DNA of 62,372 nucleotides, filler included. It is 9 parts of 9 records of this genome, joined end to end, with 100 filler letters (N's around TTAATTAATTAA, not from the genome) between each part and the next. Parts side by side here need not be neighbours in the genome. Positions count along the whole stretch, not along the records: positions 56,542 to 62,372 come from SRR31156797_43659; 8 more parts are not named here. One strand, given 5' to 3'. How positions within the stretch are numbered: position 1 is the stretch's first letter; each line of letters starts with the position of its first letter. The translations under genes and the position numbers were made by a program. Shown here one piece after another: positions 45,802 through 62,372 of the stretch. The notes below the pieces were generated by a model that ran no database searches, was not told the origin of the DNA, and saw only the letters and a list, made by a program, of their open reading frames with translations.

Positions 45802-48800
45802 TTATTTCAAGAAGGTCATCTTCTTAACGTCAACAAAATCTCCAGTGGTCAAGCGGTAGATATACATACCGGTTGCAACACTGTTACCGAAATCATCACG
45901 ACCGTTCCAAACGATCTTCTTATAACCGGCAGCAATACCAGTGTTATTTACGAGTGTGCGAACTTTACGTCCGGTAATGTCGTAAATGACCAACTTGACA
46001 TCTGCAACTTCCGGCAGGTCAAAGTTGATGGTTGTTGTCGGGTTGAAGGGGTTCGGATAGTTTTGATGCAGAGCGAACTCTGTAGGTATACCGTCAATGG
46101 CAACCTCAAGAGTATCGTTATTATACCAATAGGTAAATTCTTCAGCGGCTGCAGGAACAACTAATTGACGATTAGCTCCACCACTTGGGAATTCTGATGT
46201 ATCCCAAGAACCATTGATGCGGAATTTAAACTCTTGCGTTGAGTAAGGCATCATTGGAACAGTAACTGAATAAGTTGTATCGCCGTCAAAATCATTGGCG
46301 ACAGTTGAAGTACCATCCCAGCCGTTGAATGTACCAGCAGCATCTACATAATCAAGTGCTAAGTTGAATGCACCGTCAGCAAGCTGTTTTTTCATGATAA
46401 CGCTAAGCGTAACATCAACAGGTGAGAGCATTTGACGTTCTGTAAAGCCATCGATGTAAAGAACAGCATCTTCATCTGCAGAAGAACTGATATGAACATC
46501 AGCGATCTTTACTGTTTCGCCTGTGATCTCACCGTTACCGGTGATCCAGCCTTCAGCCATGTCATTTGCAAGATCAAAGCTTACGACCTGCCAGTCATTA
46601 CCGCAAAGTGTAATTTCTTTCCACATTGCGCGTTCATAACCGGTATCTTTAATGGTCATTGTGATCTTAACATCAGCTGCAGTACCCTTGATCAAGAACA
46701 TCAAGATGGAGTTTGATTTAACAACTGTATTATATGATGGATAGTCGTAAGGAATACGTACGAACCAACCACCATCAGCAGCAGGATCATCAAGAATGTT
46801 CATCTTACCTGATTTACTGCCTTCATATGCTTCTTCATCACTGACATCAAATGTTGATGTAGTAAGAATACCACCTGTAGAACCTGAGTATGTCAAAGTT
46901 TTGAACGCACCAACGTTTGTTTCAAAATCTTCGAGTACCAATGCGGCATCTTCGGGGTGAGCATCACTGAAGGGGACATAAACCCGGTTGCCCCATGAGG
47001 TATCAGCTTTGGATACTGTAGAACCAACAGCTGTTAAACCTGAAGTAACAAGATTTGTATTATGATCTTCAGTCAGATCAACTGTCAGCATCAAAGCATT
47101 AGGTGCAACGATAGTTACAGCTGTAGGTACAGCTTCTGCACCACCATCATCAGTGTCGATAACTTTGAAGTTAGCTGTAGTTGCTGCAGCCAGAGGTAGA
47201 TCAAACTCTACATAATATGCAGGTGTACCGTCTACCACAACAACCTGTGCATCTACGATCATCGGAGGTGCGGGGAAGTCGAAAGTAATAACTTGCGTAT
47301 CACTGTAGGACATTTCCATCATCGGATCTGTTGCAGTGAAATAGTAAGTATATGTACCGTTCATTCCATAAGGTTCATCTGGGTTGATAGGAATATACAT
47401 GAATGTATCAACAGAGGTAATAGGATCTTCAGGTCCGTCACCAATGAAGTGCATTTCATAAACCAATGTATCGCCTTCAGGATCATCAGCATCTGTCCAG
47501 TTCATGAACAGTGCTTTAACCGTATCACCACCCATTACGTAGTTTTCAATACCGGCATCATCCAGTGATGAGAATACTGCAGAATCTGCAGGGTTCAGCA
47601 TCATGAAAGGATTCGGAGGAAGATTTGTTAGGAAATCATCCATATAACGTGGCATCATCTGAGGAACATTGTACCAACCAACGACACCAACAAGATCTAA
47701 TGGCCATGATTCAGGAGGATCGGAGTCTACCATTTCTCCATCACTATCAATACGCATGATAAATTCGTTTGTACCATCTGTCAGTGTTTGACTGGAACTG
47801 TATGAAGGCCATGTAAAACCGTCAACAGTATCAACATCTTCGATTACGACTAACAAACCATGATTATCAGCAAGTTCAGGAACAGTGATAAGTTTAGGTT
47901 CAACTACATTCCCTTTGCTTAATACGGCATAATCGTCAATATATTTGACTTGTTGTAAACCGTTATATTGTGCTCTTTCTCCAACAAAAAGGATCTCATC
48001 GCCTTCTTCAACGATTTCGTCATTGATCAAATCCCATTCGTAAAGTGCGATACCTGCTGTTGCATCCTGTCCAAAGAGAGGAGCACCAATGGTTGTCGCT
48101 GTAAGAACACAAATACCTGCACAATCATCTCCAATGGCAACACCGGATGTCAGTTCAGCAATATCTGCTGATGGAATAATATCCATGTACTGGTCATCCC
48201 ATACTACATTATCGACAAATGCGGTATCAACTGTACCGGCTTTTGCGCCGCCAATACGGATATAACCGTCTTCTGCGTCAGCAATACCGATAATATTATA
48301 AGTAACCCAAGCGGTATCACTGATACACGAATAGGCTACCTGATCGTTTCCAAGACCTTGAACTGAAACTTCCAGTACATTGCCTGCGCCTTCCCATAGA
48401 GATGTCTGAATATCTATAGAAAGTTTATAAACTGAACCGACCGTTGCTTTAACAGGTCGTTTTGCAAGCATGCTGTAGCCAGCATCAGAGAGCATTAACA
48501 TACTGTCAGTTTGAGCTTCAGCTGTCCATGCATTTGATTCATCATAATGACTCCAGTTAGCAACATCAGTTGCATCGTCGAAAGTCAGATCCAAATCGTT
48601 GCTGGCAGGGTAAGCCGTACCTTCATCGGCACCGGCATATACAAAGAAAGTACCGCGCATGTCACCATCGATATCTTCTGTAATACCAACTGTGGGCATT
48701 ACAAGATCAAGGTCAACATCCGAAGGTGCTGCCAAGTGCAGATCTGTGGCGCTTGCAAATGTTACAGCGACAGAGTCTGAACCGGCATCTTGACCAAAAG

Positions 48801-50529
48801 CTTTCCAATCAGCAAGATCGGCATAGTCCGTACCTGCGTATGATGCAAGTTTTTCAGCGGAAACGAGAATGTTGTTATTGGAAGTGATTGTTTTTGCAGC
48901 AACCAGATTGATAGCTGCTGATGCGGCAGTACCTGCATTATCATTGATGATAATGTTGTTCTTTAGGTCTATTACACCAAGTCCGGTGCTTGAGTTACCG
49001 ACACCGTAGCATTCACCGGCACCTTCTACAACAAAGGTGTTATGGTAAACGTTGTATGTCTGTGCATTATTTGCTGACCATAAAAGCATACCGTAAACAG
49101 GCAGTGTTTCAGATGCTACACCCGTTAAGAATGTATTGTTGTATACATTGTATACAGCACCACCCGGATGACTGGCTGTAGAAAATCCAGCAACCTTTGT
49201 TACACCACTTGTTCCGTGATCTTCAGCAAACGTAACTGTATTACCGTAAAAATCTGAGCTGCTTACCCATGACAGGTTGATACCATAAGAGTATGAATAA
49301 CCTGATGCAGAGGGGTACATAATAATATTGTTGTCTGCGACAGTCACAGGACCGGCAATGTAAGTGGTAACACCACGTGCACCGGCATGGATATCACAAT
49401 CCATTACGTCAGCAGCACCAAAGCCATTGGTCCAGTCACCCCAGATAGCAACACCATCACGCCATATTGGCCAATCAGGTGAACCGATCTGGCAGTTTTC
49501 AACTGAGAAGCTGTTGCCGCCGATATCGTTAGATACGACACCGTATTTAAAACCGATTGTAACATTATCAAGGTTCTTAATGATAAGGTTTTTAATAACA
49601 ACCTCTTCAATACCTGTGGCATTAATACCAAAAGGAACTCTGATATCGTTTGTTTCTGTGGTTACTATCAAGTTACGAGAGTCTGTACCGTCGTTGCTTC
49701 CGTCAAAGGTAACATAACCTTGGTCGAAACCGATCATCTGATCGCCATTACCCTGTGAGGCACCGGCGCCAACGATCAATACAACATCACGGCCTTCAGC
49801 AGGTTTGACGGTGACATTATTGTCAGCATCAAGAGCAGCATTGAATGTAAAGCTGTTTTCTCTCAAAGTATCGGCATCAAGGATCAAATTGATCTCTCCG
49901 ACTACGCCGTTAGCATTGATCGAATCGACAGCTTCTTCCAATGTTGCCCAACCTTTATCATGTGAGCCTTTGGGAATGAAGTAATCATTCGGATCTTCTG
50001 CAGGAGGTGCAGTTTCTATAATTGAAAGATCATCCCAATAAGTGACGGCTCCGGAGTATGTACGAAGTTCAAATAACAGAGTGTCTGCATTTTCTGGAGC
50101 GACAACACTTGTGGTGTATTCTGTCCATGCTCCACCATTATTATCCAGATAATTACCTTCCGGACCTCGTAATTCATCTCCGTTGTAAGTGTAGTCACTT
50201 GCGCCTTCACTTCTCCATACGGACCAGATCCTTGCATCGCTACCGTCATTTTCAACCACTTTATACCATATTGATATATCATAGGTATAACCCGGTGTGA
50301 CCGTAACATATTGTGCAAGATCTTTTGTACCACCGACATGTTTAGCGGAATATGTTCCACCATGGACACTATCGGCATCTTGAGTGATGTCCTCAAATTT
50401 GTACCACCCCGTTGGGGTGTTCGCATCAGTCCAGGCTTCGAGATCTCCATTCACGAGAATCTCGGTCTGTCCTAATGCAAATGTTGTCAGAATAAAAACC
50501 GACAACAATGCAATTAGCACTTTTTTCAT
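45802..50529 (-). CDS. large secreted multidomain protein with T9SS type A / FlgD-Ig-like C-terminal sorting domain
   Basis: Signal peptide, CBM-like N-terminus (NGDLEAW), beta-helix-like region (YNVYHNTF, LKNNIIIN), OB-fold-like GERAQYNGLQQV, C-terminal FALHQNYPNPFNPTTTINFDLP...WNGRDD.GNSVATGMYIYRL. Confidence 0.85.
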   Translation of the reverse strand: MKKVLIALLSVFILTTFALGQTEILVNGDLEAWTDANTPTGWYKFEDITQDADSVHGGTYSAKHVGGTKDLAQYVTVTPGYTYDISIWYKVVENDGSDARIWSVWRSEGASDYTYNGDELRGPEGNYLDNNGGAWTEYTTSVVAPENADTLLFELRTYSGAVTYWDDLSIIETAPPAEDPNDYFIPKGSHDKGWATLEEAVDSINANGVVGEINLILDADTLRENSFTFNAALDADNNVTVKPAEGRDVVLIVGAGASQGNGDQMIGFDQGYVTFDGSNDGTDSRNLIVTTETNDIRVPFGINATGIEEVVIKNLIIKNLDNVTIGFKYGVVSNDIGGNSFSVENCQIGSPDWPIWRDGVAIWGDWTNGFGAADVMDCDIHAGARGVTTYIAGPVTVADNNIIMYPSASGYSYSYGINLSWVSSSDFYGNTVTFAEDHGTSGVTKVAGFSTASHPGGAVYNVYNNTFLTGVASETLPVYGMLLWSANNAQTYNVYHNTFVVEGAGECYGVGNSSTGLGVIDLKNNIIINDNAGTAASAAINLVAAKTITSNNNILVSAEKLASYAGTDYADLADWKAFGQDAGSDSVAVTFASATDLHLAAPSDVDLDLVMPTVGITEDIDGDMRGTFFVYAGADEGTAYPASNDLDLTFDDATDVANWSHYDESNAWTAEAQTDSMLMLSDAGYSMLAKRPVKATVGSVYKLSIDIQTSLWEGAGNVLEVSVQGLGNDQVAYSCISDTAWVTYNIIGIADAEDGYIRIGGAKAGTVDTAFVDNVVWDDQYMDIIPSADIAELTSGVAIGDDCAGICVLTATTIGAPLFGQDATAGIALYEWDLINDEIVEEGDEILFVGERAQYNGLQQVKYIDDYAVLSKGNVVEPKLITVPELADNHGLLVVIEDVDTVDGFTWPSYSSSQTLTDGTNEFIMRIDSDGEMVDSDPPESWPLDLVGVVGWYNVPQMMPRYMDDFLTNLPPNPFMMLNPADSAVFSSLDDAGIENYVMGGDTVKALFMNWTDADDPEGDTLVYEMHFIGDGPEDPITSVDTFMYIPINPDEPYGMNGTYTYYFTATDPMMEMSYSDTQVITFDFPAPPMIVDAQVVVVDGTPAYYVEFDLPLAAATTANFKVIDTDDGGAEAVPTAVTIVAPNALMLTVDLTEDHNTNLVTSGLTAVGSTVSKADTSWGNRVYVPFSDAHPEDAALVLEDFETNVGAFKTLTYSGSTGGILTTSTFDVSDEEAYEGSKSGKMNILDDPAADGGWFVRIPYDYPSYNTVVKSNSILMFLIKGTAADVKITMTIKDTGYERAMWKEITLCGNDWQVVSFDLANDMAEGWITGNGEITGETVKIADVHISSSADEDAVLYIDGFTERQMLSPVDVTLSVIMKKQLADGAFNLALDYVDAAGTFNGWDGTSTVANDFDGDTTYSVTVPMMPYSTQEFKFRINGSWDTSEFPSGGANRQLVVPAAAEEFTYWYNNDTLEVAIDGIPTEFALHQNYPNPFNPTTTINFDLPEVADVKLVIYDITGRKVRTLVNNTGIAAGYKKIVWNGRDDFGNSVATGMYIYRLTTGDFVDVKKMTFLK

Positions 50530-50792: not shown

Positions 50793-52439
50793 ATGACCTA
50801 TATCACACTATTACTAATAACCATTTTGGTGCTTTTCTGGTTGGGCTTTTTTAGCTGGCAACGCCGGTTTAAACCCGGAGTCGCCGCCTTTTCAGTCATG
50901 ATGTTTTTGGGAGCGGCCTGGTGCGCGGTCATTACATTGATGTTGATCAGTCCGTCTCGGGATATGGCTCTTTTCTGGTATCGGACGGGATTTATAAGCA
51001 TCTCTCTCCTGCCTATTATCATGCTTGCCTTCATAGCCCAATATAGCGGGTCCCGGTTGATCGCGGGAACCCGTTTGACCCTGATGATTATTATTCCAAT
51101 TGTAACCCAGGCGGCTGTCTGGACTGACGATCATTTCCATCTATTTTTTGAATCAATTAATATTGTAGAAAAAAACGGCTTGATGGTCATTCAGGCCTGG
51201 TCTCCTGGTCCCTGGTTCATTGTTCATTCCGTTTACAGCTTTGCCATAATGTTGGCCGCGATAGTCTGGCTGTTCATATATGCGGTTAGGCAGTACCGGG
51301 TATTCCGCGGGCAATCTATCGCGTTTATTATGGGCGCGCTTATGGTGACGCTGCCTAATCTTGCTTTTGCCGTCGGACTTATCCCGCCCGATGTTATACT
51401 GCTGCCTTTCACTTTCCTGGGCATGGGATTATTTATAGGTTGGGCCATTTTTCGCCACAAGCTTTTGGAAGTCATACCGGTCGCCCGTGACAAAATGATC
51501 GATATTATGAGCGATGGAATGATCGTTCTCGACAATGATAAACGGGTTGTTGACATGAATCCGGCTGCCGGAGACATGCTTGCCCTGACCGGTGAGGACG
51601 TGATCGGACAAACCGCGGCTCGGGTATTCAGCCCCTGGCCTGATATTATTGAGCGTTTTGCGGACGTAGACCGGACTCAAACCGAAATAAGAATACTTTC
51701 AGGAGATGACGAATCCTATTATGACGTTCGCATAACCGGGTTGGTGGATAAGAGAAAACGCCCGGCGGGGCGACTTATTTTATTCAGGGACATTACCAGA
51801 AGAAAGAGCATCGAAAAGGAAAAAGATCGATTGCTTTCAGATTTGAATCAAAAAAACAAGGAACTGGAATTGCTCTACGGCATGGCCCTGGATGCCAACC
51901 CGATGACCGGGCTGCCGGGTAACAACAGCGTTTCCGCCGCCATTTCAAAATTCCTGAAAAATAGTGAGAATTATTGCGTAATATACACGGATTTAGACAA
52001 TTTCAAGGCATTTAACGATAAATACGGATTCGCTCTTGGTGATGAAGTGATAAAATTTACCGCCGACGTCCTGAACAAATCTCTTGCCGCGGCGGATTGC
52101 GAGGAATCCTTCCTTGGCCATATTGGAGGAGATGACTTTGTCCTGATCGCGCCAATGGAAAAAACAAAGGCGGTTGTGGAATTCATAATTCGTAAATTCG
52201 ACGCTGATGTTGTCAAATTTTATAATGATAATGATCTGGCGCAAGGTTTCATATCATCGACAAACCGCCGGGGGGGCAAGGAAGATTTTCCGATCATGAC
52301 TATCAGCATGGCCGGGGTCGATCTTTCCCTAAACCGATACCATGAATATATTGAAGTCAACGACGCCTGCGCCGAATTAAAGAAAAAGGCCAAATCGATC
52401 CCCGGCAGCAATTTTTATTTGGATCATCGCATGGGGTGA
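50793..52439 (+). CDS. 7TM (HisKA_7TM-type) + PAS + GGDEF diguanylate cyclase
   Basis: Seven TMs, PAS (MSDGMIVLD...RDITRRK), DANPMTGLPGN, DLDNFKAFNDKYG, intact GHIGGDDF. Confidence 0.9.
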   Translation: MTYITLLLITILVLFWLGFFSWQRRFKPGVAAFSVMMFLGAAWCAVITLMLISPSRDMALFWYRTGFISISLLPIIMLAFIAQYSGSRLIAGTRLTLMIIIPIVTQAAVWTDDHFHLFFESINIVEKNGLMVIQAWSPGPWFIVHSVYSFAIMLAAIVWLFIYAVRQYRVFRGQSIAFIMGALMVTLPNLAFAVGLIPPDVILLPFTFLGMGLFIGWAIFRHKLLEVIPVARDKMIDIMSDGMIVLDNDKRVVDMNPAAGDMLALTGEDVIGQTAARVFSPWPDIIERFADVDRTQTEIRILSGDDESYYDVRITGLVDKRKRPAGRLILFRDITRRKSIEKEKDRLLSDLNQKNKELELLYGMALDANPMTGLPGNNSVSAAISKFLKNSENYCVIYTDLDNFKAFNDKYGFALGDEVIKFTADVLNKSLAAADCEESFLGHIGGDDFVLIAPMEKTKAVVEFIIRKFDADVVKFYNDNDLAQGFISSTNRRGGKEDFPIMTISMAGVDLSLNRYHEYIEVNDACAELKKKAKSIPGSNFYLDHRMG

Positions 52440-53442: not shown

Positions 53443-53542
53443 TTGTTTAAACTTGACCTTATTTATCGGCGGATGTTAAATATCACCGCAATGGGGTTAG
53501 ACAATGAATGACAGGGCATTGGTTGCGCAACGGCAATCCGGA

Positions 53543-53578
53543 GCCTCCTAACTCACAAAAGGTTGGGGGGTTTTTTTT
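53543..53578 (+). terminator. intrinsic terminator or attenuator just upstream of pyrB
   Basis: CCTCCTAACT-loop-GGTTGGGGGG followed by T8, ending 23 nt before the pyrB GTG. Confidence 0.7.
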
Positions 53579-53601
53579 GCCCTGGAGAGGGTGGAAGACC
53601 A

Positions 53602-54524
<923 letters not shown>

Positions 54525-54525
<1 letters not shown>

Positions 54526-55814
54526 TGAGGACTTTGGTTAAAGGCGGACGCGTTTTGGATCCCAGTCAGGATCTGGATGATGTACGAGACATATTGATAG
54601 AAGACGGCGTCATTCTCGATACGGTTGCGCCCGAGGAACGGCCGGATTGGGAAGCCGGGGGCATGGTGGTTGAAGCGGAAGGACTTTTGGTCGTTCCCGG
54701 TTTGATTGACATGCACGTCCATTTAAGGGAGCCCGGCCACGAATACAAGGAAACCGTGGGCACCGGCGCGGCCGCGGCCGCGGCCGGCGGGTTTACAGCC
54801 GTGGCTTGCATGCCGAATACTTCTCCGGTTTGCGATGAAAGCTCAGTGGTTGAATATATACTGGCCAGGGCAGAAGAAGCCGGTATGAGCAGGGTCTGGC
54901 CGATTGCCGCCATGACCCATGGGTCCAAGGGAGAAAAGCTTTCCGAATACGGCGACCTGGCCGAATCCGGGGCGGTTGGGGTTTCAGATGACGGCTGCTG
55001 GGTCACAAATGCCAAAATGATGCGCAGAGCCCTGGAATACGCCAGGGTTTTCGGGCTGACTCCAATTTCTCATCCCGAAGAACATGGTCTTTCTTCAGGC
55101 GGAGTGATGAATGAAGGGCCCACGGCGACTTCCATGGGGCTGGCCGGCATTCCGGCCGCGGCAGAGGAAATAGCCGTTTTCAGAGACATTCGCTTGTCGG
55201 AGCTGACAGGCGCCCCGGTTCATCTGGCCCATATTTCCACGGCCGGGTCGGTTGATATTATCAGGACGGCCAAGGAGCGCGGCATAAAAGTGACCGCGGA
55301 AACAGCGCCCCATTATTTTATGTTGGACGACAGCGCGGTCCGGGGATATTCAACCCTGGCCAAAATGAATCCGCCGCTTAGAACCGCTTTGGATATTGAG
55401 GCCATTCGCCGGGGCCTGGCCGACGGGACCCTGGATGCGATCGCCACGGATCATGCTCCGCATTCATCCATGGAAAAGGATATGGAATTTGACGCGGCCG
55501 CATTTGGGATTATTGGTTTGGAAACGGCTCTGCCTTTATCCCTGGAACTGGTTGCGGCCGGAGTTCTTACTCTGAAGCAGGCGATTGAAGCGTTGTCTTG
55601 CAAGCCGGCATCCATCCTGGGAGTGCAGGGCGGAACCTTGCGTTCGGGCGCGGCCGCGGATCTGACCATTATCGATCGGAATATGCAGTGGGTTTGCGAT
55701 CCGTCCGCATTTAAATCTAAAAGTCGAAACACGCCGTTTGGGGGGCGGGAATTGACTGGTCGGCCGGTCCTGACCATGGTTGGAGGCCGGGTTGTACACA
55801 GACTCTCTTCCTGA
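54525..55814 (+). CDS. pyrC: dihydroorotase
   Basis: PGLIDMHVHLREPG, MPNT, KMNPPLR, ATDHAPH; TAATG overlap with pyrB. Confidence 0.96.
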
Positions 55815-55823
55815 TGGAACGCC

Positions 55824-56441
55824 ATGTCCAAAATTCTTGTTGTTGATGATGAACTAAGTATTCGCGAGACCTTTGAGATACTTCTCACCAGGGAAGGCTA
55901 TAGCGTCGATGTGGCCGCCGGCGGACTGGAGGCCATAACTCTTTTTAATGATAAACAGTACGATTTGGTTATTACCGACATCCGCATGCCCGGCATGAGC
56001 GGCGTGGAAGTTTTAAAGAGCATCAAGGCTGTAAGCCCCCGCACCAAGGTGATACTCATATCCGCATATCCCAAGGATGTGACCGCGGACGACCTTTTGG
56101 CCCAGGGTGCGTATGACCTGTTCACCAAGCCTTTTGACAATGAAGACATAAAGTCGGTTGTTCGAAACGCGTTGGGCGGCGCCGGACAGGAAGAAGTCAA
56201 GCGCTTTGGCGCCCTGGTCGGCGATTCCGAGCAAATGAAGGAAGTATATCGGCAAATATGGCGGGCGGCCCAAACCAGCACGAACATATTAATCACCGGA
56301 CAATCCGGAACCGGTAAGGAATTGGTGGCCAGAGCGATACACGACCATTCCAACAGGGTCGATGAAATGTTCGTGGCCATCAATTGCGGCGGCATGCCCG
56401 AGCAGTTGATAGAAAGCGAATTGTTCGGCTATAAAAAAGGC
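55824..56441 (+). CDS. sigma54-dependent (NtrC/PilR-like) response regulator, truncated
   Basis: ILVVDDE, ITDIRMPG, ITGQSGTGKELVARAIH, AINCGG.PEQLIESELFG. Confidence 0.9.
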
Positions 56442-56716
56442 NNNNNNNNNNNNNNNNNNNNNNNNNNNNNNNNNNNNNNNNNNNNTTAATTAATTAANNN
56501 NNNNNNNNNNNNNNNNNNNNNNNNNNNNNNNNNNNNNNNNNTTGTAGTGTATGGAAAATGACGAGTTGGCAGGAGCTTGCTTCCCATCTCAAACAGCCCC
56601 AGGAAAGCATATCCTTTGCCGGGTGAAAAGGACTGTATTTGATTTTTTTCAACCAAATCTTTTGCGGAAAAGGCTGTCTAGTCGCTCGAGTTCATATTAC
56701 GGCCCCGTGGGCCGAA

Positions 56717-58021
56717 TTATTCAAGATTTCGTGCAACATTCGAAACCTTCCAGGGGTTCCATTTGTCAAAATAAGAAACCCTGCATACAAGCTCCAATAG
56801 ATATGCCAAGCTCCTGACACTGCGAATATAAAAGCCAGTATAAAGCGGGATTAAAGGCAGGTAGATAAAGAGGGCCAGCTCTTTCCAATACATAGTTCCG
56901 GAAAGAAGAGCAATTGCAATGCTAAACTCTAAGATGTTGGCGAGGGCATATAATACCAGATTGATGAGCATAATAATTTCAATATGGCCTGGGTCCATAA
57001 TAATGAGTTGCACAAAATACAGCCACCACTTTATATCAAGGAGCAGATTGAAGAAAATATTATCGAAAGAGGCAATAAAATTGCGAAAGTTGAAACTTTT
57101 TGAGGGAAGTAGGATGTCTCTGTGTTTTCTGAGGCGAAATCTTACCAGGGATCTGTTCCAACGGAATCTCTGCCTGGCAAGTTTCCTGAAAGAGTTGGGA
57201 ACATTAGTGTAGCATATCGCAAATGGTTCATGGACAATTTTGTAACCAAGTTTTCTTATTTTAATTGTAATATCGCCATCAAGGCCTGGACCAACATCCC
57301 ACCCATACAGACGCTGAAGAATATCTGTGCGAAAGGCACCAAAGGCACCGCCAATAATTCGTAGTATACCAAGCTCTGAGCTGACTGTTCTCCCTGTTGA
57401 TATAGTTTTGAAGTATTCGATGGTCTGAAACCGGGTAGCCAGGGTGCTGTTTACATTGGCAACGCGAATGTCGCCGCCAACAGCCCCGACACTGTCGTCC
57501 ATATAAAAAGGAAGCATCACTTTTTCAATGGCATCAGGTGAAAGGTGGCTGTCTGCGTCAAGGTGAATAACATATTTTCCACGTACGTATTTAAGGGCAG
57601 TGTTTGCTGCCGATGCTTTTCCACCTCGTATTTCGTTTCTAAAAAAACGGGTTATTTTCCCTTGTCGCTGCAAACGGCGGCATATAAAAGGTGTTTCATC
57701 ATCGGAACCGTCATCGACAATAATGGATTCAATGTTTTTATACGACTGGAGAGTCAGAGTGTGGGCGAGCTGGGCAAGGTGCTTGCCTTCATTTTTACCT
57801 GGCACAATAACTGAAATTAAAGGGCGTTCCTTGAAAAGACGGCGTCTAGCTTCAGCGTAAGCGTGTCTTTGACGATATCGTTTTGGGATATAAAAAGTCA
57901 GGACCACAAAGTCTACAAGCAGGTAGCGACTCATGTCCAGCAGGAAAAAAGGCCAAAAATATGCCAGTGCTTTTAACAGAGTGATATCGCCTAAAAAATC
58001 TGAAAAAGAATCAAGCAGCAT
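56717..58021 (-). CDS. processive membrane GT2 polysaccharide synthase (PgaC/IcaA/HasA-like)
   Basis: SVIVPGKNEG, VDDGSDD, GGKASAAN, HLDADS, GLDGD, QRFRW; N- and C-terminal TM helices. Likely ATG 58021 overlaps the upstream stop. Confidence 0.9.
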   Translation of the reverse strand: MLLDSFSDFLGDITLLKALAYFWPFFLLDMSRYLLVDFVVLTFYIPKRYRQRHAYAEARRRLFKERPLISVIVPGKNEGKHLAQLAHTLTLQSYKNIESIIVDDGSDDETPFICRRLQRQGKITRFFRNEIRGGKASAANTALKYVRGKYVIHLDADSHLSPDAIEKVMLPFYMDDSVGAVGGDIRVANVNSTLATRFQTIEYFKTISTGRTVSSELGILRIIGGAFGAFRTDILQRLYGWDVGPGLDGDITIKIRKLGYKIVHEPFAICYTNVPNSFRKLARQRFRWNRSLVRFRLRKHRDILLPSKSFNFRNFIASFDNIFFNLLLDIKWWLYFVQLIIMDPGHIEIIMLINLVLYALANILEFSIAIALLSGTMYWKELALFIYLPLIPLYTGFYIRSVRSLAYLLELVCRVSYFDKWNPWKVSNVARNLE

Positions 58022-59426
58022 TTGTGCGGAGTAGATGTTCGATTTCTTGATCCAGCATAATATCACCGCTTACAGCTTTGATCGTTTTGTTAATTGTGCA
58101 GTCAATGTTGAGGTTGGTTGTAAGCAGTGAGGCTATCCGATCATTCAGGCGGGAAATTGCAAGCTCAGCACTCTGTATTTGAGTTTCGGGCATGAGTATT
58201 AAAAAAATATTTTCATCGCGGACCGAAAAGACGTCGGAACTGCGCAGTTGTTCCTGTAATGCCTTGCTTATTTCAGTGAAAACTTCCGAGGAACGTTTTC
58301 CTAACTTTTCGTAAATGGTCTCGATTCCGGAGAGTCTCATGATGACTATGCTGCTTGTGCTTATTTTATAACGTGCTATTCGTTCGCTTTCCAGTCTGAG
58401 AATTTTTTTGAAAATGGAGTGGCTGATGGTGTTCAGCTTAGATTCTAAGATCGATTGCAGCAGTGAATCCATACCATACCTGGCGGCATTAACCCCGATG
58501 GCGGTTATCGAGTATGATTGAATCTGTCGAATCACTTGGTTTTCCGGCTCTGTTTCACGCCAGCAGTTATAACAGGAGGTCATAACTTTAGGTTCTTGAA
58601 AGATATTGCTGCATATATTGCAATGAAAAACAACTGACGCCTTATCGTGATCAACACCAAGTTGTTTTAAGCGGGTTTCGCACTTTGGGCAGACAAGCTG
58701 CTCTCCCTGGGTAAAGTCGGAAAGCTCCCCAACATATGCGCATTTAAAGTGGTGAATAAGTTCTTCTGAGCGAAGGTCGTTTGATCCGCAATCTGGACAT
58801 GTTTCAAAAAAGTTGAGAAACGCACAATCGCAGTGGGTACAGGAGTAGGAGCGGTTGACAAAAGTTGCAGTGAGAAGTCGTTGGCTTTCTAAATACTCCA
58901 GGACTTCGAATGTGCTGATATCATCTTTGGGAAACAATGGAAGTAGTGGCGGGTATATGAATCCTTTTTGTTCTCTTGCCGATGCAATGGGCTTGAATGC
59001 AGCATCCCTTGTTTCGATAAACCGGAGCACTTTGAAGGCAAGACTCGAATCTCCCGCATCTGACAGGATTTTTAGTTGTTCGATTCGACTATTAATAGGT
59101 TCGAGTCGAGCAGCCCATGTATTGCATTCTTTTGCCAACTGATCTGGAGTTTCAAGTACAAAACCGTCTGCAGCCTGCAATATTTCAGGAGGTATATTCT
59201 TTTCACTTAGTAAAAACAGGATCGGACGGAGGTATATTTTTAAGTCAACATGTCTTCTGATACGCTGAAGATCCCTGTATCCTAGCTGCCAATCAGCTCC
59301 AAGCGGGATAATGAAAAATGAAACAGCAGCTAAATTAACAGCTCCAAGTTCTGTAAAGGAACAAACAGGGATACCTTGAGGACACTGGTCTGGTGTCGTT
59401 GCCGAGACAATGAGAGGGTTTCTCAT
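58011..59426 (-). CDS. TackOD1-like Zn-ribbon protein with degenerate GGDEF domain carrying an RxxD I-site
   Basis: CTHC, CPDC, HFKC, CPKC, CNIC and CYNC pairs after a winged-helix-like segment; C-terminal LRSSDVFSVRDENIFLILMPET. Confidence 0.8.
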   Translation of the reverse strand: MRNPLIVSATTPDQCPQGIPVCSFTELGAVNLAAVSFFIIPLGADWQLGYRDLQRIRRHVDLKIYLRPILFLLSEKNIPPEILQAADGFVLETPDQLAKECNTWAARLEPINSRIEQLKILSDAGDSSLAFKVLRFIETRDAAFKPIASAREQKGFIYPPLLPLFPKDDISTFEVLEYLESQRLLTATFVNRSYSCTHCDCAFLNFFETCPDCGSNDLRSEELIHHFKCAYVGELSDFTQGEQLVCPKCETRLKQLGVDHDKASVVFHCNICSNIFQEPKVMTSCYNCWRETEPENQVIRQIQSYSITAIGVNAARYGMDSLLQSILESKLNTISHSIFKKILRLESERIARYKISTSSIVIMRLSGIETIYEKLGKRSSEVFTEISKALQEQLRSSDVFSVRDENIFLILMPETQIQSAELAISRLNDRIASLLTTNLNIDCTINKTIKAVSGDIMLDQEIEHLLRTNAA

Positions 59427-60427
59427 TTGCGTTCTCCTTTTACCTTGACGTCCATCCGGTCAAACATACGCCATTTCTGTCCATCTTGTTCTGTGAGTGG
59501 TTTTAAGGTAACTCTTAACTCAGTTGATACCGGAACGTAGTTATTTTTGACGAGGTAGACTTGAGATCGAGCACTGGAGACAAACTTCGTAATTTGGCCA
59601 ACACTTACAGATTTATCCGGGAATCGAATGGTCAGTTGTTTCCCCTTGTCTAAAAAATGGAGGTTTTTTGCATCAATATAGGCCGCAACAACAACAGGAT
59701 CATTTTCCGGGATAACCACAAATAAAGGCTCTCCCCTTTTCAGGTATTCAGAGCTGCGATGTGTCACTTGGTCTATTTCACCGGAAAAAGTCGCCACAAT
59801 ATCCTCAAATTGACATTGAGAATTTTTGGCCAAGGCAAATTCCTGCTCCAGCAACATCAATTCTGTCTTCTTGACTTTGATTTCAGCCAACAGTTTGTTC
59901 GCTGCGTCTTGTTTATTCATTAGATCTCGAAGCATGAGCTCTTCTGCTTTTTGCCTGGATAAAATATCACCAATTTCAAGGGCTCGACGAAGGATTGTTG
60001 TCCCTTTACTAGCCTCCATTTGGGTTTCTATCTGGTAAAGCTGATCAAGGATCAGTTCATGCTCGCTTTGTTTTTGCTTAATTTCATATTTAAGTCGAAT
60101 TAACCTGACATTGGGCGCTGTATCAACACACGATGGTCCTTTCCATATCTGCGCCAGTATATCCCCTTTTACAAAGGAGTCTCCTGCTGATTTGTTCAGC
60201 AGCCGAACAGCACCATCGTTGGTGGCGCTGATATTCACCCGTGCGATTTCGACATGCCCCTTTCCTGTAAAATACAAAAAACGCTTGATGAGAATTGAAC
60301 AAACAGCACCGACAACACAAAGTAACACCAAAAAATAAATGAGTCTCAGTATTTTAGGCAGCAGCTTTACCGGGGGAGTCCCTTCAGGAAGGTTTAGAAA
60401 ATGACTTTTTTGGGTTCTTAGTTTCAT
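59423..60427 (-). CDS. HlyD/membrane-fusion (periplasmic adaptor) protein
   Basis: Single N-terminal TM, lipoyl halves (ISATNDGAV...GDSFVKGDILAQI; IVATFSGEI...EYLKRGEPLF) around a coiled coil, C-terminal beta-barrel. Confidence 0.8.
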   Translation of the reverse strand: MKLRTQKSHFLNLPEGTPPVKLLPKILRLIYFLVLLCVVGAVCSILIKRFLYFTGKGHVEIARVNISATNDGAVRLLNKSAGDSFVKGDILAQIWKGPSCVDTAPNVRLIRLKYEIKQKQSEHELILDQLYQIETQMEASKGTTILRRALEIGDILSRQKAEELMLRDLMNKQDAANKLLAEIKVKKTELMLLEQEFALAKNSQCQFEDIVATFSGEIDQVTHRSSEYLKRGEPLFVVIPENDPVVVAAYIDAKNLHFLDKGKQLTIRFPDKSVSVGQITKFVSSARSQVYLVKNNYVPVSTELRVTLKPLTEQDGQKWRMFDRMDVKVKGERK

Positions 60428-60658
60428 GGGTTATGTATAGCGGCGTATAATCCGCTGGTTCAGGAGTATATAATATGGAAAATATCCACGCTTCCAAAAG
60501 TAATGATTTGCAGTTTCATCTTGTTCTTTCTATTGCTGAGTGCGTTGTGTCTCAAAAGAGAGACAACTGGGCGGTTCTTGCATAATTACATGGAGAACGG
60601 ATATGCCATCCATAGTCCTTTGCACGTGAAGTGTTACTGTACCTTTAGGTAAGGCCTC

Positions 60659-62372
60659 TTATTGCATCTCATCCAAAATGACATGCGGTTGAACAATCAG
60701 CCCATCGTCGGCTCCCCCCACATCCCATTTTCTTATAAAACGGCCCAGGTCATGGATGGCAAAATTCATCAGCCCTGTCTCGTCGACAATTCTCTCTATC
60801 ATTTGTTCCATTTTCCACTCATCGGAGAAATCGTTTATACGTAAAACTATCACGATTTTTTGATGAGGAACATTTTGTAGAATGGGCCTAATTCTTCTCA
60901 GGAGTATATCTGGTTCGGTTGTACCGTATGCCATCACGTACAAAGAGTCTGCCAGCTCTCCAAGTTGTTTGTAGGTTTCCTGCGGCCAATGAAAAGGTAC
61001 TGCAAGGGTGAGCTTTCGATCCTGTAATCCTTTCTTAATTTTGCCCATAAGAAGGGTATAGAGAGAGAGGTACTCTTCTCGTCTGGCTTGGTAGTCCGGC
61101 AAAGTCTGCGGCTCAATATCGAGATGCAGGGTTCCCGTTTTCTCTGCTGTTCTCAAGCTTTTTTGTACCGCTTTTTCATGATTTTTCTCATGAACCCAGC
61201 TGTTGTCACCAGTCATCATGGCAACGGCAATCCTGCGTTTTTCCAATTGTTTTAAAAAGCTGTTTTGCTTTACTCTGTCTATCGATCGTCCATCGGATAA
61301 AAGGACTGTTGATATGTTTTTAGCTCCCAAAAAGATGTTAATATCTTGATTGCTTATGTTGTTGAAATCACGAGACCAAAGATAAATAGAACGGTTGCCG
61401 TATCGTGCCCGGTGCCTTTCCGGGTGCAGAACAAATTTTTGTATCAGGTGGGGAGTAAAAGGGATGCGTGCAGTAAGAAACATTTCATTAATGCGCCGGT
61501 ATAACTCCTCTAAAGCTCGTACAAATTCTATATGCGCTTCAACCGAAGTTCTCATCCTTGTAATGGCGGCGGGTAGGAGGTTCTGTTCTCCGTTTTTCAG
61601 CATTAACAAGGTTCGTTTTACCCGTTCCTGGGCACGCATGGTTCTGTAGTGTTGGCGTACAGTTCGACGGAGCTGTTCCTGCAACTCAGTGTAACGAATT
61701 CGTGTTTGGTTTAATCTATCGTGAAGCAGTTTATTCTTTTTTCGCTCAACCTGGCGAAGTTGTAACTGCAGCACATCATTGTTTCTGGAATAAAGTGGAA
61801 CCCGGAATCGCACTCCTGCGATCAGGTCATCATCATTCTGGTTATCTGAGTTTATCCCAAATTCCTGACGAAGATAGAGGCGAAGTGAGTCGTGGACGAC
61901 CGCTTCCTGTTGGGCCGTTAACCATTCTTTTTCAATGGAGAAGAGTGCAGAGTAGCTGTCATCTTGCCTGATCGCTGTAAGAAGCCCAGCTAAGTTTATA
62001 TCAATTATGGCCGGGTACTCAGGACGAGATGAACCGTTGTCAAAATAAGGATCAGCGAGCAGTCCTTCCAGTGAGTGACGTGTGAGTAATAAATCTTCTT
62101 CTGATACCAGGTAGTCGTCCCAAAAACTCCACTGTTTGAAATAGGCCCGCCGTTCAACATCATAAACCGGTTGAATAAAATCGAGTTTAAGGTGGAGTAA
62201 TTGTATCAGCAACTCGCTGAATTCTTTTTTGACCTGGTATCTCCTGCAGAGGTAGGATTCACTTAATTTCTCGAGATTGTACTCAAGGTCTGCCTTGCGT
62301 GCCTTGGCTTCCAGAGCATCGGCACGCCTAGAATTATGGACAAACCCATTTTTTAAAATGTCCCAGGAAAGT
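60659..62372 (-). CDS. TolC/OEP-like outer-membrane domain fused to a C-terminal glycoside-hydrolase-like TIM barrel; 5' end off window
   Basis: Frame open to the window edge with LSWDILKNG and AGVRFRVPLY strands followed by long helices; C-terminal SIYLW...TLHLDIEP...LYVMAYG. Confidence 0.6.
   Translation of the reverse strand, partial: LSWDILKNGFVHNSRRADALEAKARKADLEYNLEKLSESYLCRRYQVKKEFSELLIQLLHLKLDFIQPVYDVERRAYFKQWSFWDDYLVSEEDLLLTRHSLEGLLADPYFDNGSSRPEYPAIIDINLAGLLTAIRQDDSYSALFSIEKEWLTAQQEAVVHDSLRLYLRQEFGINSDNQNDDDLIAGVRFRVPLYSRNNDVLQLQLRQVERKKNKLLHDRLNQTRIRYTELQEQLRRTVRQHYRTMRAQERVKRTLLMLKNGEQNLLPAAITRMRTSVEAHIEFVRALEELYRRINEMFLTARIPFTPHLIQKFVLHPERHRARYGNRSIYLWSRDFNNISNQDINIFLGAKNISTVLLSDGRSIDRVKQNSFLKQLEKRRIAVAMMTGDNSWVHEKNHEKAVQKSLRTAEKTGTLHLDIEPQTLPDYQARREEYLSLYTLLMGKIKKGLQDRKLTLAVPFHWPQETYKQLGELADSLYVMAYGTTEPDILLRRIRPILQNVPHQKIVIVLRINDFSDEWKMEQMIERIVDETGLMNFAIHDLGRFIRKWDVGGADDGLIVQPHVILDEMQ

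Follow-up and report, generated by a model that had tools for sequence, protein, structure and literature searches.

Here, we describe a four-gene operon at positions 56717-62372 of a 62,372-nt stretch of DNA (the window, by which we mean the whole stretch analyzed, parts of nine records of one genome joined end to end). The four open reading frames (ORFs), which we call P1 to P4, are co-oriented on the minus strand, and the outermost (P1) is open at the window end. We consider it quite likely that their products form a synthase-dependent machine by which a polysaccharide is synthesized and exported through both membranes with no energized pump. This reading builds on the domain identities, folds, conserved catalytic and binding motifs, and strict gene linkage that we observed, and on homology to the Mxd system of Shewanella.

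In the scheme that we infer for the protein contacts, the polymer path, the sugar, and the binding of cyclic di-GMP (c-di-GMP), P4 would polymerize a nucleotide sugar, probably UDP-GlcNAc, at the cytoplasmic face and thread the chain through its own membrane channel. P3, a soluble switch subunit, would bind c-di-GMP at an RxxD motif and turn P4 on by direct contact, perhaps at the C-terminal tail of P4. From its anchor in the inner membrane, P2 would span the periplasm to P1, which would be a dedicated TolC-like trimeric exit duct, and the GH18-like domain of P1 would trim, release, or clear the polymer in the periplasm. The features of the operon are as follows:

60659-62371, minus strand: P1, 570 amino acids (aa) in the window, 5' end open; full-length relatives have 701 aa
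61409..62372, minus strand: N-terminal part of P1, TolC/outer-membrane-factor-like; ~131 N-terminal residues, including the signal peptide, lie beyond the window end
60659..61408, minus strand: C-terminal part of P1, a predicted GH18-like (beta/alpha)8 barrel with HLDIEP and M-x-Y motifs, then the stop codon
60428..60658, minus strand: P1-P2 spacer, 231 nt (relatives have a median of 0 nt between these genes)
59423..60427, minus strand: P2, HlyD-type membrane fusion protein (periplasmic adaptor), 334 aa, HlyD_3
58011..59426, minus strand: P3, soluble MxdA-like protein with a REC-like N terminus, TackOD1, and a degenerate GGDEF domain, 471 aa
58506..59048, minus strand: TackOD1 domain of P3, residues 127-307, with 11 Cys and 2 His invariant
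58233..58244, minus strand: RSSD, the RxxD I-site motif of P3 and predicted c-di-GMP site (from translation and alignment)
58203..58217, minus strand: DENIF at the GGDEF catalytic position of P3 (from translation and alignment)
56717..58021, minus strand: P4, processive membrane glycosyltransferase of family GT2, 434 aa from the ATG at 58021, with DDGS, DAD, and QRFRW motifs

The initial annotation, made from the letters alone, had described four co-oriented genes, the last three with overlapping stop and start codons at 59423-59426 and 58011-58021, and both junctions can be read directly. The P2/P3 junction is an ATGA overlap at 59426-59423. The P3 stop codon (TGA) lies at 58013-58011 and the in-frame P4 ATG is at 58021, giving an overlap of 11 nt. 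The longest ORF for P4 is 56717-58066, with a GTG start; counted from the ATG at 58021 the protein has 434 aa, equal to its Desulfogranum marinum counterpart. Overall, the window proteins are 88-92% identical to counterparts in Desulfogranum marinum DSM 2058 and a Desulfobulbus metagenome-assembled genome. In the P1-P2 spacer, promoter-like matches and a terminator scan gave results at chance level, and an Rfam search of the window returned zero matches.

The strongest argument that these genes belong together comes from their conservation. Species-representative genomes were scanned with the P3 alignment, which matched at least 600 stretches, with at least 488 encoding a relative; the best 80 loci were kept, and their ORFs were called and clustered all-against-all. 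Four families recur in these 80 loci (P3-type in 77, P4-type in 76, P2-type in 72, and P1-type in 69). The next largest ORF cluster is found in 10 loci, and there is no fifth recurrent gene. The four-gene set, whose distribution across taxa the initial annotation had proposed to survey, is contiguous on one strand in the same order, P1-P2-P3-P4, in 62 of the 80 loci (median gaps 0, -4, and -4 nt), and the loci span ten phyla. Because the four families recur together in related loci, the observation is far beyond chance. Judged from these comparisons, the four genes appear to be a self-contained, strongly conserved unit.

Among the 18 loci in which the set is not contiguous, eight end at a contig end. 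Two others (L018 and L023) contain all four genes by tblastn, so that the non-contiguity is an artifact of ORF picking, and the same is true of L064, where the adaptor gene is split. In three Salinibacter/Salinivenus loci there is an insert ahead of a longer P3 gene. Salinibacter and Salinivenus loci L026, L027, and L040 encode P3 homologs of 789-811 aa with a long N-terminal extension, and have extra small ORFs between the adaptor and receptor genes.

The domain assignments of the initial annotation hold for all four proteins, by Pfam for P2 (HlyD_3), P3 (TackOD1 and GGDEF), and P4 (GT2), and by the model of a relative for the TolC-like and GH18-like parts of P1. The fold of P1 was read from a model of P0002, a 701-aa protein that is 89% identical to it (21-sequence alignment, pLDDT 83.2). 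This model matches TolC (7ng9_A) in Foldseek at 1.1e-9 over ~430 columns, and ~30 outer-membrane factor (OMF) entries at E values of 1e-9 to 3e-7. Residues 70-439 align with TolC-family channels with VIA-align Z of 18.3-19.7 over ~360 residues, and the two-repeat OMF fold (a beta hairpin and long helices in each repeat) fits the secondary structure of the model. Residues 455-686 align with GH18 chitinases and GH18-fold proteins (VIA-align Z 18-19.8, root-mean-square deviation 2.6-3.5 Å, 210-226 residues). Foldseek neighbors of the barrel include PgaB (4f9j, 4.8e-5), and several of its structural neighbors are non-catalytic chitinase-like lectins (BRP39, YKL-39/40, and RobpsCRA). From the model, P1 is predicted to be an outer-membrane channel of TolC fold with a GH18-like TIM barrel joined to it.

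At the sequence level, the barrel falls outside curated families. The GH18 catalytic motif is DxxDxDxE, of which the P1 barrel carries only H-x-D-x-E. These positions are well kept: H416, D418, and E420 (H-x-D-x-E, within HLDIEP) and Y482 (M-x-Y, as MAYG) are found in 61-63 of 64 P1 sequences. The best match of the barrel profile in the PDB is 10yv_A at 4.9e-5, with an LDxEP motif common to both, and Pfam GH18 gives weak matches, below threshold, in three of 21 P1 members (best E 0.0014). When the barrel profile was searched against 1.84 billion cluster representatives, there were 2486 matches at E <= 0.001, 887 at <= 1e-10, and 340 at <= 1e-30. Among the best 150 relatives, 128 are at least 634 aa long with the domain at the C terminus and 22 are shorter, some of these stemming from short contigs.

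P4 matches Pfam Glycos_transf_2 at 2.4e-28 and Chitin_synth_2 at 5.4e-11, and has the DDGS, DxD (DAD), and QRFRW motifs. The corresponding residues (D118, D119, D170, D172, Q299, R300, R302, and W303) do not vary among the 74 sequences compared. Catalytic roles would be expected for these motifs, as for those of the P1 barrel. Compared with solved membrane synthases, the P4 profile matches hyaluronan synthase at 6.7e-17, chitin synthase at 3.8e-8, and BcsA at 3e-5. The best NCBIfam match is PgaC_IcaA (4.2e-45), and NodC is also among the best (5.7e-22). P4 as an ortholog of the PgaC/IcaA poly-N-acetylglucosamine (PNAG) synthase (the TIGR03937 equivalog) was rejected, given a score far under the cut-off (154.4 bits vs. 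422.3). A crude hydropathy scan finds residues 354-392 alone to be strongly hydrophobic; a PgaC-type alignment would lead one to expect N-terminal helices in P4. The last 25 residues (425-449, at 56717-56791; SYFDKWNPWKVS...) are almost invariant across phyla, which makes this tail a candidate docking site for a partner. Because the nearest named synthase families (PgaC/IcaA, NodC, chitin synthase, and hyaluronan synthase) use UDP-GlcNAc, and because the barrel keeps the GH18-type D-x-E, the polymer is probably GlcNAc-based.

P2 matches Pfam HlyD_3 at 5.5e-10. Against solved structures, its family profile matches an HlyD-type membrane fusion protein best (8dck, 1.3e-16), and also EmrA, LipC, and MacA. 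The hydropathy scan of P2 gives one strong hydrophobic segment, residues 29-47, as an N-terminal membrane anchor. Adaptors of this kind can carry an RLS motif at the tip of the hairpin; the hairpin spacing of P2 does not fit this motif.

P3 matches Pfam TackOD1 at 2.8e-48 and GGDEF weakly, barely over threshold (3.2e-5). In the Protein Atlas, P3 matched only TackOD1 clusters, none of them informatively named. Its model (pLDDT 82.3) matches PleD, WspR, DgcR, and SiaD in Foldseek, with TM-scores of ~0.6-0.66 (normalized to the target) against GGDEF-only chains, and its hydropathy scan shows no strong hydrophobic segment. The 13 Cys/His positions of TackOD1 are kept in 76 of 77 aligned full homologs (the exception is L076). 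In pairwise HMMER alignments with three solved cyclases, RSSD of P3 aligns with REYD, RQSD, and RKSD of SiaD, 3ign, and DgcR, respectively, and DENIF, five residues downstream of RSSD, aligns with GGEEF. R395 and D398 are invariant in family alignment A1, and the GGDEF position is degenerate in 77 of 77 aligned full homologs. Because RSSD falls on the I-site and DENIF on GGEEF, P3 would be a dead cyclase with an intact predicted c-di-GMP site.

There is, however, a division among the homologs. RxxD is present in all 47 from outside the Bacteroidota vs. four of 30 from Bacteroidota. In Bacteroidota, T, L, K, F, or D stands in place of the arginine, and other conserved arginines have been lost as well; the zinc ligands are retained. 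Genomes that carry an intact site have 21-59 GGDEF matches each (five genomes), and five Bacteroidota carriers have zero. Because the RxxD pattern tracks the GGDEF counts in the genomes, it appears that the site is kept where c-di-GMP is made, and that P3 itself is needed regardless. The c-di-GMP receptor role that the initial annotation proposed for P3 is supported at the level of motifs by the intact RxxD outside the Bacteroidota and the degenerate GGDEF.

The initial annotation also held that this parts list matches no known system. This is true in part: the fusion of a channel to a GH18-like domain and the four-gene arrangement appear undescribed, but P3, P4, and P2 appear, from sequence comparison, to be distant homologs of MxdA, MxdB, and MxdC of Shewanella oneidensis. 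The mxdABCD genes are reported to be required for three-dimensional biofilm of S. oneidensis MR-1, with a product presumed to be an exopolysaccharide; MxdB is described as a GT2 enzyme, MxdC as resembling an efflux component, and MxdD as without known homology (PMC3691769). MxdA reportedly binds c-di-GMP and has CheY3 and a cyclase as interaction partners (PMC7666153 and PMC11395469, both citing Gambari 2019).

A search of 401 genomes from a single order with the P3 profile gave four strong full-length matches of the window type and a second class, the MxdA class, with 22 matches at 1e-38 to 1e-48. In all 12 of the 22 second-class loci that were examined, the order on one strand is receptor, GT2, adaptor, and their products match the window families by HMM (receptor at 1e-54 to 1e-68, GT2 at 1e-64 to 1e-70, and HlyD at 1e-18 to 1e-31). 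In BLASTP, P3 and MxdA (AAN57153.1, P0287) are 26% identical across 304 aa (E 3e-27), and RSSD of P3 aligns with RVTD of MxdA. The two proteins are alike in their architecture (TackOD1 and a degenerate or weak GGDEF domain) and in their RxxD motif, and each system has its receptor gene immediately ahead of the GT2 gene, with both the GT2 gene and an HlyD-type gene of the operon homologous between the two.

There are also differences. The identity between the GT2 enzymes of the two types is ~28-34%, and the gene order is P1-P2-P3-P4 in the window vs. receptor-GT2-adaptor in Mxd-type loci, so that the window departs from the A-B-C-D order of mxdABCD. None of the 12 Mxd-type loci has a P1 homolog (MxdD of S. 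oneidensis itself was outside this comparison), and the P1 profile has zero matches in five of five Mxd-type genomes vs. one in each of five window-type genomes. The fourth gene of MxdA-class loci is variable, with mutually unrelated Pfam assignments (DM13, alpha/beta hydrolase, luciferase-like, ferric reductase, and YkuD), and no common MxdD-like family was found among these genes. In a FastTree analysis of 93 receptor proteins, in which some branches are long, 73 from P1-P2-P3-P4 loci fall on one side of a branch with support of 100, and MxdA and the Vibrio, Shewanella, and Pseudomonas receptors fall on the other.

Rheinheimera species carry both an MxdA-type receptor (P0178 and P0182) and the window-type cassette (L017, L024, L031, L033, L034, and L037), so the two systems coexist as paralogs in one genus. 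MxdA-type TackOD1 proteins (P0238, P0260, and P0266-P0273) are frequent in Vibrio cholerae, V. alginolyticus, and V. parahaemolyticus; their clusters have 84 to 554 members, and we found no study of these proteins.

Could P3 be something other than a c-di-GMP switch? It may be a zinc- or redox-dependent scaffold, a CheY-binding scaffold, or a DNA-binding regulator, with a GGDEF remnant that is merely structural. The 13 Cys/His positions, kept in nearly all homologs while 26 of 30 Bacteroidota proteins are without the I-site arginine, would fit such a role, as would the reported binding of CheY3 by MxdA (PMC7666153); in addition, the authors who defined the TackOD1 domain call its function obscure (PMC5847659). 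However, RxxD is invariant in the 47 homologs from outside the Bacteroidota and tracks the GGDEF genes of the genome, MxdA is reported to bind c-di-GMP (PMC7666153, PMC11395469), and the start/stop overlap with the GT2 gene argues for a stoichiometric subunit rather than a transcription factor. Overall, we think a scaffold or regulator of this kind rather unlikely, and prefer P3 as a switch subunit that would respond to c-di-GMP.

That a synthase might serve as the pump of an adaptor-TolC conduit is not itself a new idea, as it has been proposed for XcsAB-TolC and BgsAB-TolC (PMC12430437, PMC13438883). In the Xcs model, as described with reference to Maeda 2018, the parts are XcsA (a GT2 enzyme with PilZ), XcsB (HlyD-like), a TolC-like channel, and the endoglucanase XcsC (PMC12430437). 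The cyanobacterial Xcs system and the window operon are alike in having a processive GT2 enzyme, a c-di-GMP receptor module, an HlyD-like adaptor, a TolC-like channel, and a glycoside hydrolase. In Xcs, however, a PilZ domain is fused to the synthase, which is of the BcsA cellulose type; TolC is encoded by a gene of its own, which in T. vulcanus is unlinked; and the hydrolase is a separate endoglucanase. In the window, the GT2 enzyme is nearer to PgaC, NodC, and hyaluronan synthase than to BcsA (3e-5 for BcsA vs. 6.7e-17 for hyaluronan synthase), the receptor is a separate protein, and the hydrolase-like domain is fused to a dedicated channel. For the mixed-linkage beta-glucan made by BgsAB of Sinorhizobium meliloti, TolC is reported to be genetically required and a tripartite complex is proposed; here too a c-di-GMP-activated GT2 enzyme is combined with an HlyD-family adaptor and TolC (PMC13438883). 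This system differs in that TolC is the housekeeping one, c-di-GMP acts on the synthase, the operon as described is without a hydrolase or TackOD1 protein, and the product is a glucan.

The Pga system (PgaC, PgaD, PgaB, and PgaA) is similar in that PgaC/IcaA is the best NCBIfam match of P4 and the C-terminal barrel of PgaB is near that of P1, but the window cassette has no deacetylase, PgaA-type porin, or PgaD. In alginate (Alg8-Alg44) and Pel (PelD) synthesis, a c-di-GMP receptor gates a GT2 enzyme. Alg44 has a periplasmic domain resembling an adaptor, and PelD is a degenerate GGDEF protein with an intact I-site; P3, with its intact RxxD and dead GGDEF, is at the motif level a putative receptor of the PelD type. 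These receptors, however, are membrane proteins without zinc ribbons, and alginate and Pel are exported via TPR/beta-barrel porins rather than a TolC-like duct. Indeed, cellulose, PNAG, alginate, and Pel polymers all leave the cell via TPR/beta-barrel porins, and to our knowledge a TolC-type route has so far been proposed only for two glucan systems, which borrow the housekeeping TolC. In the literature, we found no description of a TolC-like/glycoside hydrolase fusion or of the four-gene cassette. New, then, are a dedicated channel with a fused hydrolase-like domain, the order of the genes, and a receptor clade apart from that of MxdA; already known are a core to which this one is distantly related (Mxd) and precedents for the logic of the mechanism.

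It is also conceivable that an ordinary tripartite exporter, with P1 and P2 as its two outer components, is completed by an inner-membrane ABC or MFS pump from an unlinked gene, in which case the GT2 enzyme would make the cargo or a lipid-linked intermediate and would not be the translocon. The P2 profile does best match adaptors of ABC or MFS pumps (HlyD 8dck, LipC, EmrA, and MacA), and, as our view of this organism is limited to the window, a pump may lie elsewhere in its genome. On the other hand, the initial annotation had seen no ABC, RND, or MFS pump in view, and this stands: there is none within 45.8-62.4 kb of the window, and no transporter family was seen to recur within 10 kb on either side in the 80 loci from ten phyla, with 25 of the 33 recurrent neighbor clusters scanned in Pfam; these 25 are housekeeping or lineage-specific genes, with no ABC, RND, or MFS transporter among them. 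Also against an unlinked pump are the translational coupling of the four genes, the presence in 74 of 74 GT2 sequences of the QRxRW motif of self-translocating synthases, and the pump-less precedents of BgsAB-TolC and Xcs. An exporter with a distant pump is thus improbable, and we favor P4 as the inner-membrane engine.

Finally, products limited to short NodC-like GlcNAc oligosaccharides (released as a signal or to decorate the surface, the GH18-like domain being a lectin or a module that sets their length) would suit the NodC match of P4 and the lectins among the structural neighbors of the barrel, but we give this little credence, as the D-x-E pair and M-x-Y tyrosine of P1 speak for catalysis if conservation is a guide, the homologous Mxd system is reported to give a biofilm-matrix phenotype (PMC3691769), and a 12-strand TolC-type duct with an adaptor would be a costly route for small oligosaccharides.

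Several observations weigh against a pump-less, c-di-GMP-switched polysaccharide machine and should be kept in mind. The P1 sequence matches zero Pfam and zero NCBIfam families at E <= 0.01, and a match to the OEP family is absent; that it is TolC-like was read from the modeled relative with 89% identity, and in the window copy the first ~131 residues are missing. A C-terminal domain on a TolC-like protomer would be expected outside the tunnel, which leaves no obvious access to a chain within a sealed conduit. With the PgaC score far below its cut-off and Pfam GH18 below threshold, the choice of sugar is a guess. P3 is in a clade separate from that of MxdA and is only 26% identical to it, so in carrying MxdA biochemistry over to P3 by analogy we infer rather than observe. 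Because the Bacteroidota versions that have lost the RxxD arginine are nonetheless kept, the core role of P3, as far as the motif pattern indicates, cannot be c-di-GMP sensing alone; in addition, one Bacteroidota carrier (L074) retains RxxD despite zero GGDEF matches in its genome. Lastly, some loci are incomplete: L011 and L059 are without the GT2 gene, L047 is without P1, and L072 has P3 and P4 alone.

The surroundings of the operon differ between relatives. The window flanks (pyrB, pyrC, and a truncated sigma-54 activator gene) are different even from those in D. marinum, the closest relative (glnD and glnA; dciA and cysS). The activator gene (55824-56489, plus strand) encodes a receiver and a sigma-54 activator ATPase domain that ends at 76 of 168 positions, and is separated by ~230 nt from the GT2 gene at the 3' end of the latter; its truncation may date from the arrival of the cassette. 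An adjoining ORF (56551-56814) has no Pfam match. The G+C content is 55%-57% over pyrB and pyrC (53500-55500) vs. ~42%-45% in the operon and upstream. A plus-strand gene (50793-52439), which lies ~4 kb from the operon, encodes a 548-aa protein with a HisKA_7TM sensor, PAS, and GGDEF domains, which could be a local source of c-di-GMP. Farther away, a minus-strand gene (45802-50529) encodes a 1575-aa protein with a carbohydrate-binding module and a C-terminal FlgD_ig/Por_Secre_tail-like domain, the latter slightly under the Pfam cut-off and unusual in a Desulfobulbaceae-like genome.

Taken at its broadest, the operon would represent a distinct and widespread secretion class in which a GT2 enzyme is the sole inner-membrane engine of a tripartite duct, the TolC-like channel has a built-in GH18-like enzyme, the product is a chitin-like or other GlcNAc polymer, and a zinc-ribbon/dead-GGDEF switch takes c-di-GMP as its signal in most phyla but, after rewiring, a different one in Bacteroidota, which lack c-di-GMP cyclases. 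We put this forward tentatively, rating it a shade short of probable. Because the cassette encodes its own channel, the pump-less tripartite model is directly testable with four genes. The finding would assign a role to the TackOD1 domain, and the Bacteroidota versions without the I-site are a natural experiment on the rewiring of a c-di-GMP switch. The long-studied but mechanistically opaque Mxd system of Shewanella gains a wide family context. With 340 cluster representatives at E <= 1e-30 for the hydrolase-like domain fused to the channel, matrix production by this system may be common but overlooked among marine and sediment bacteria.

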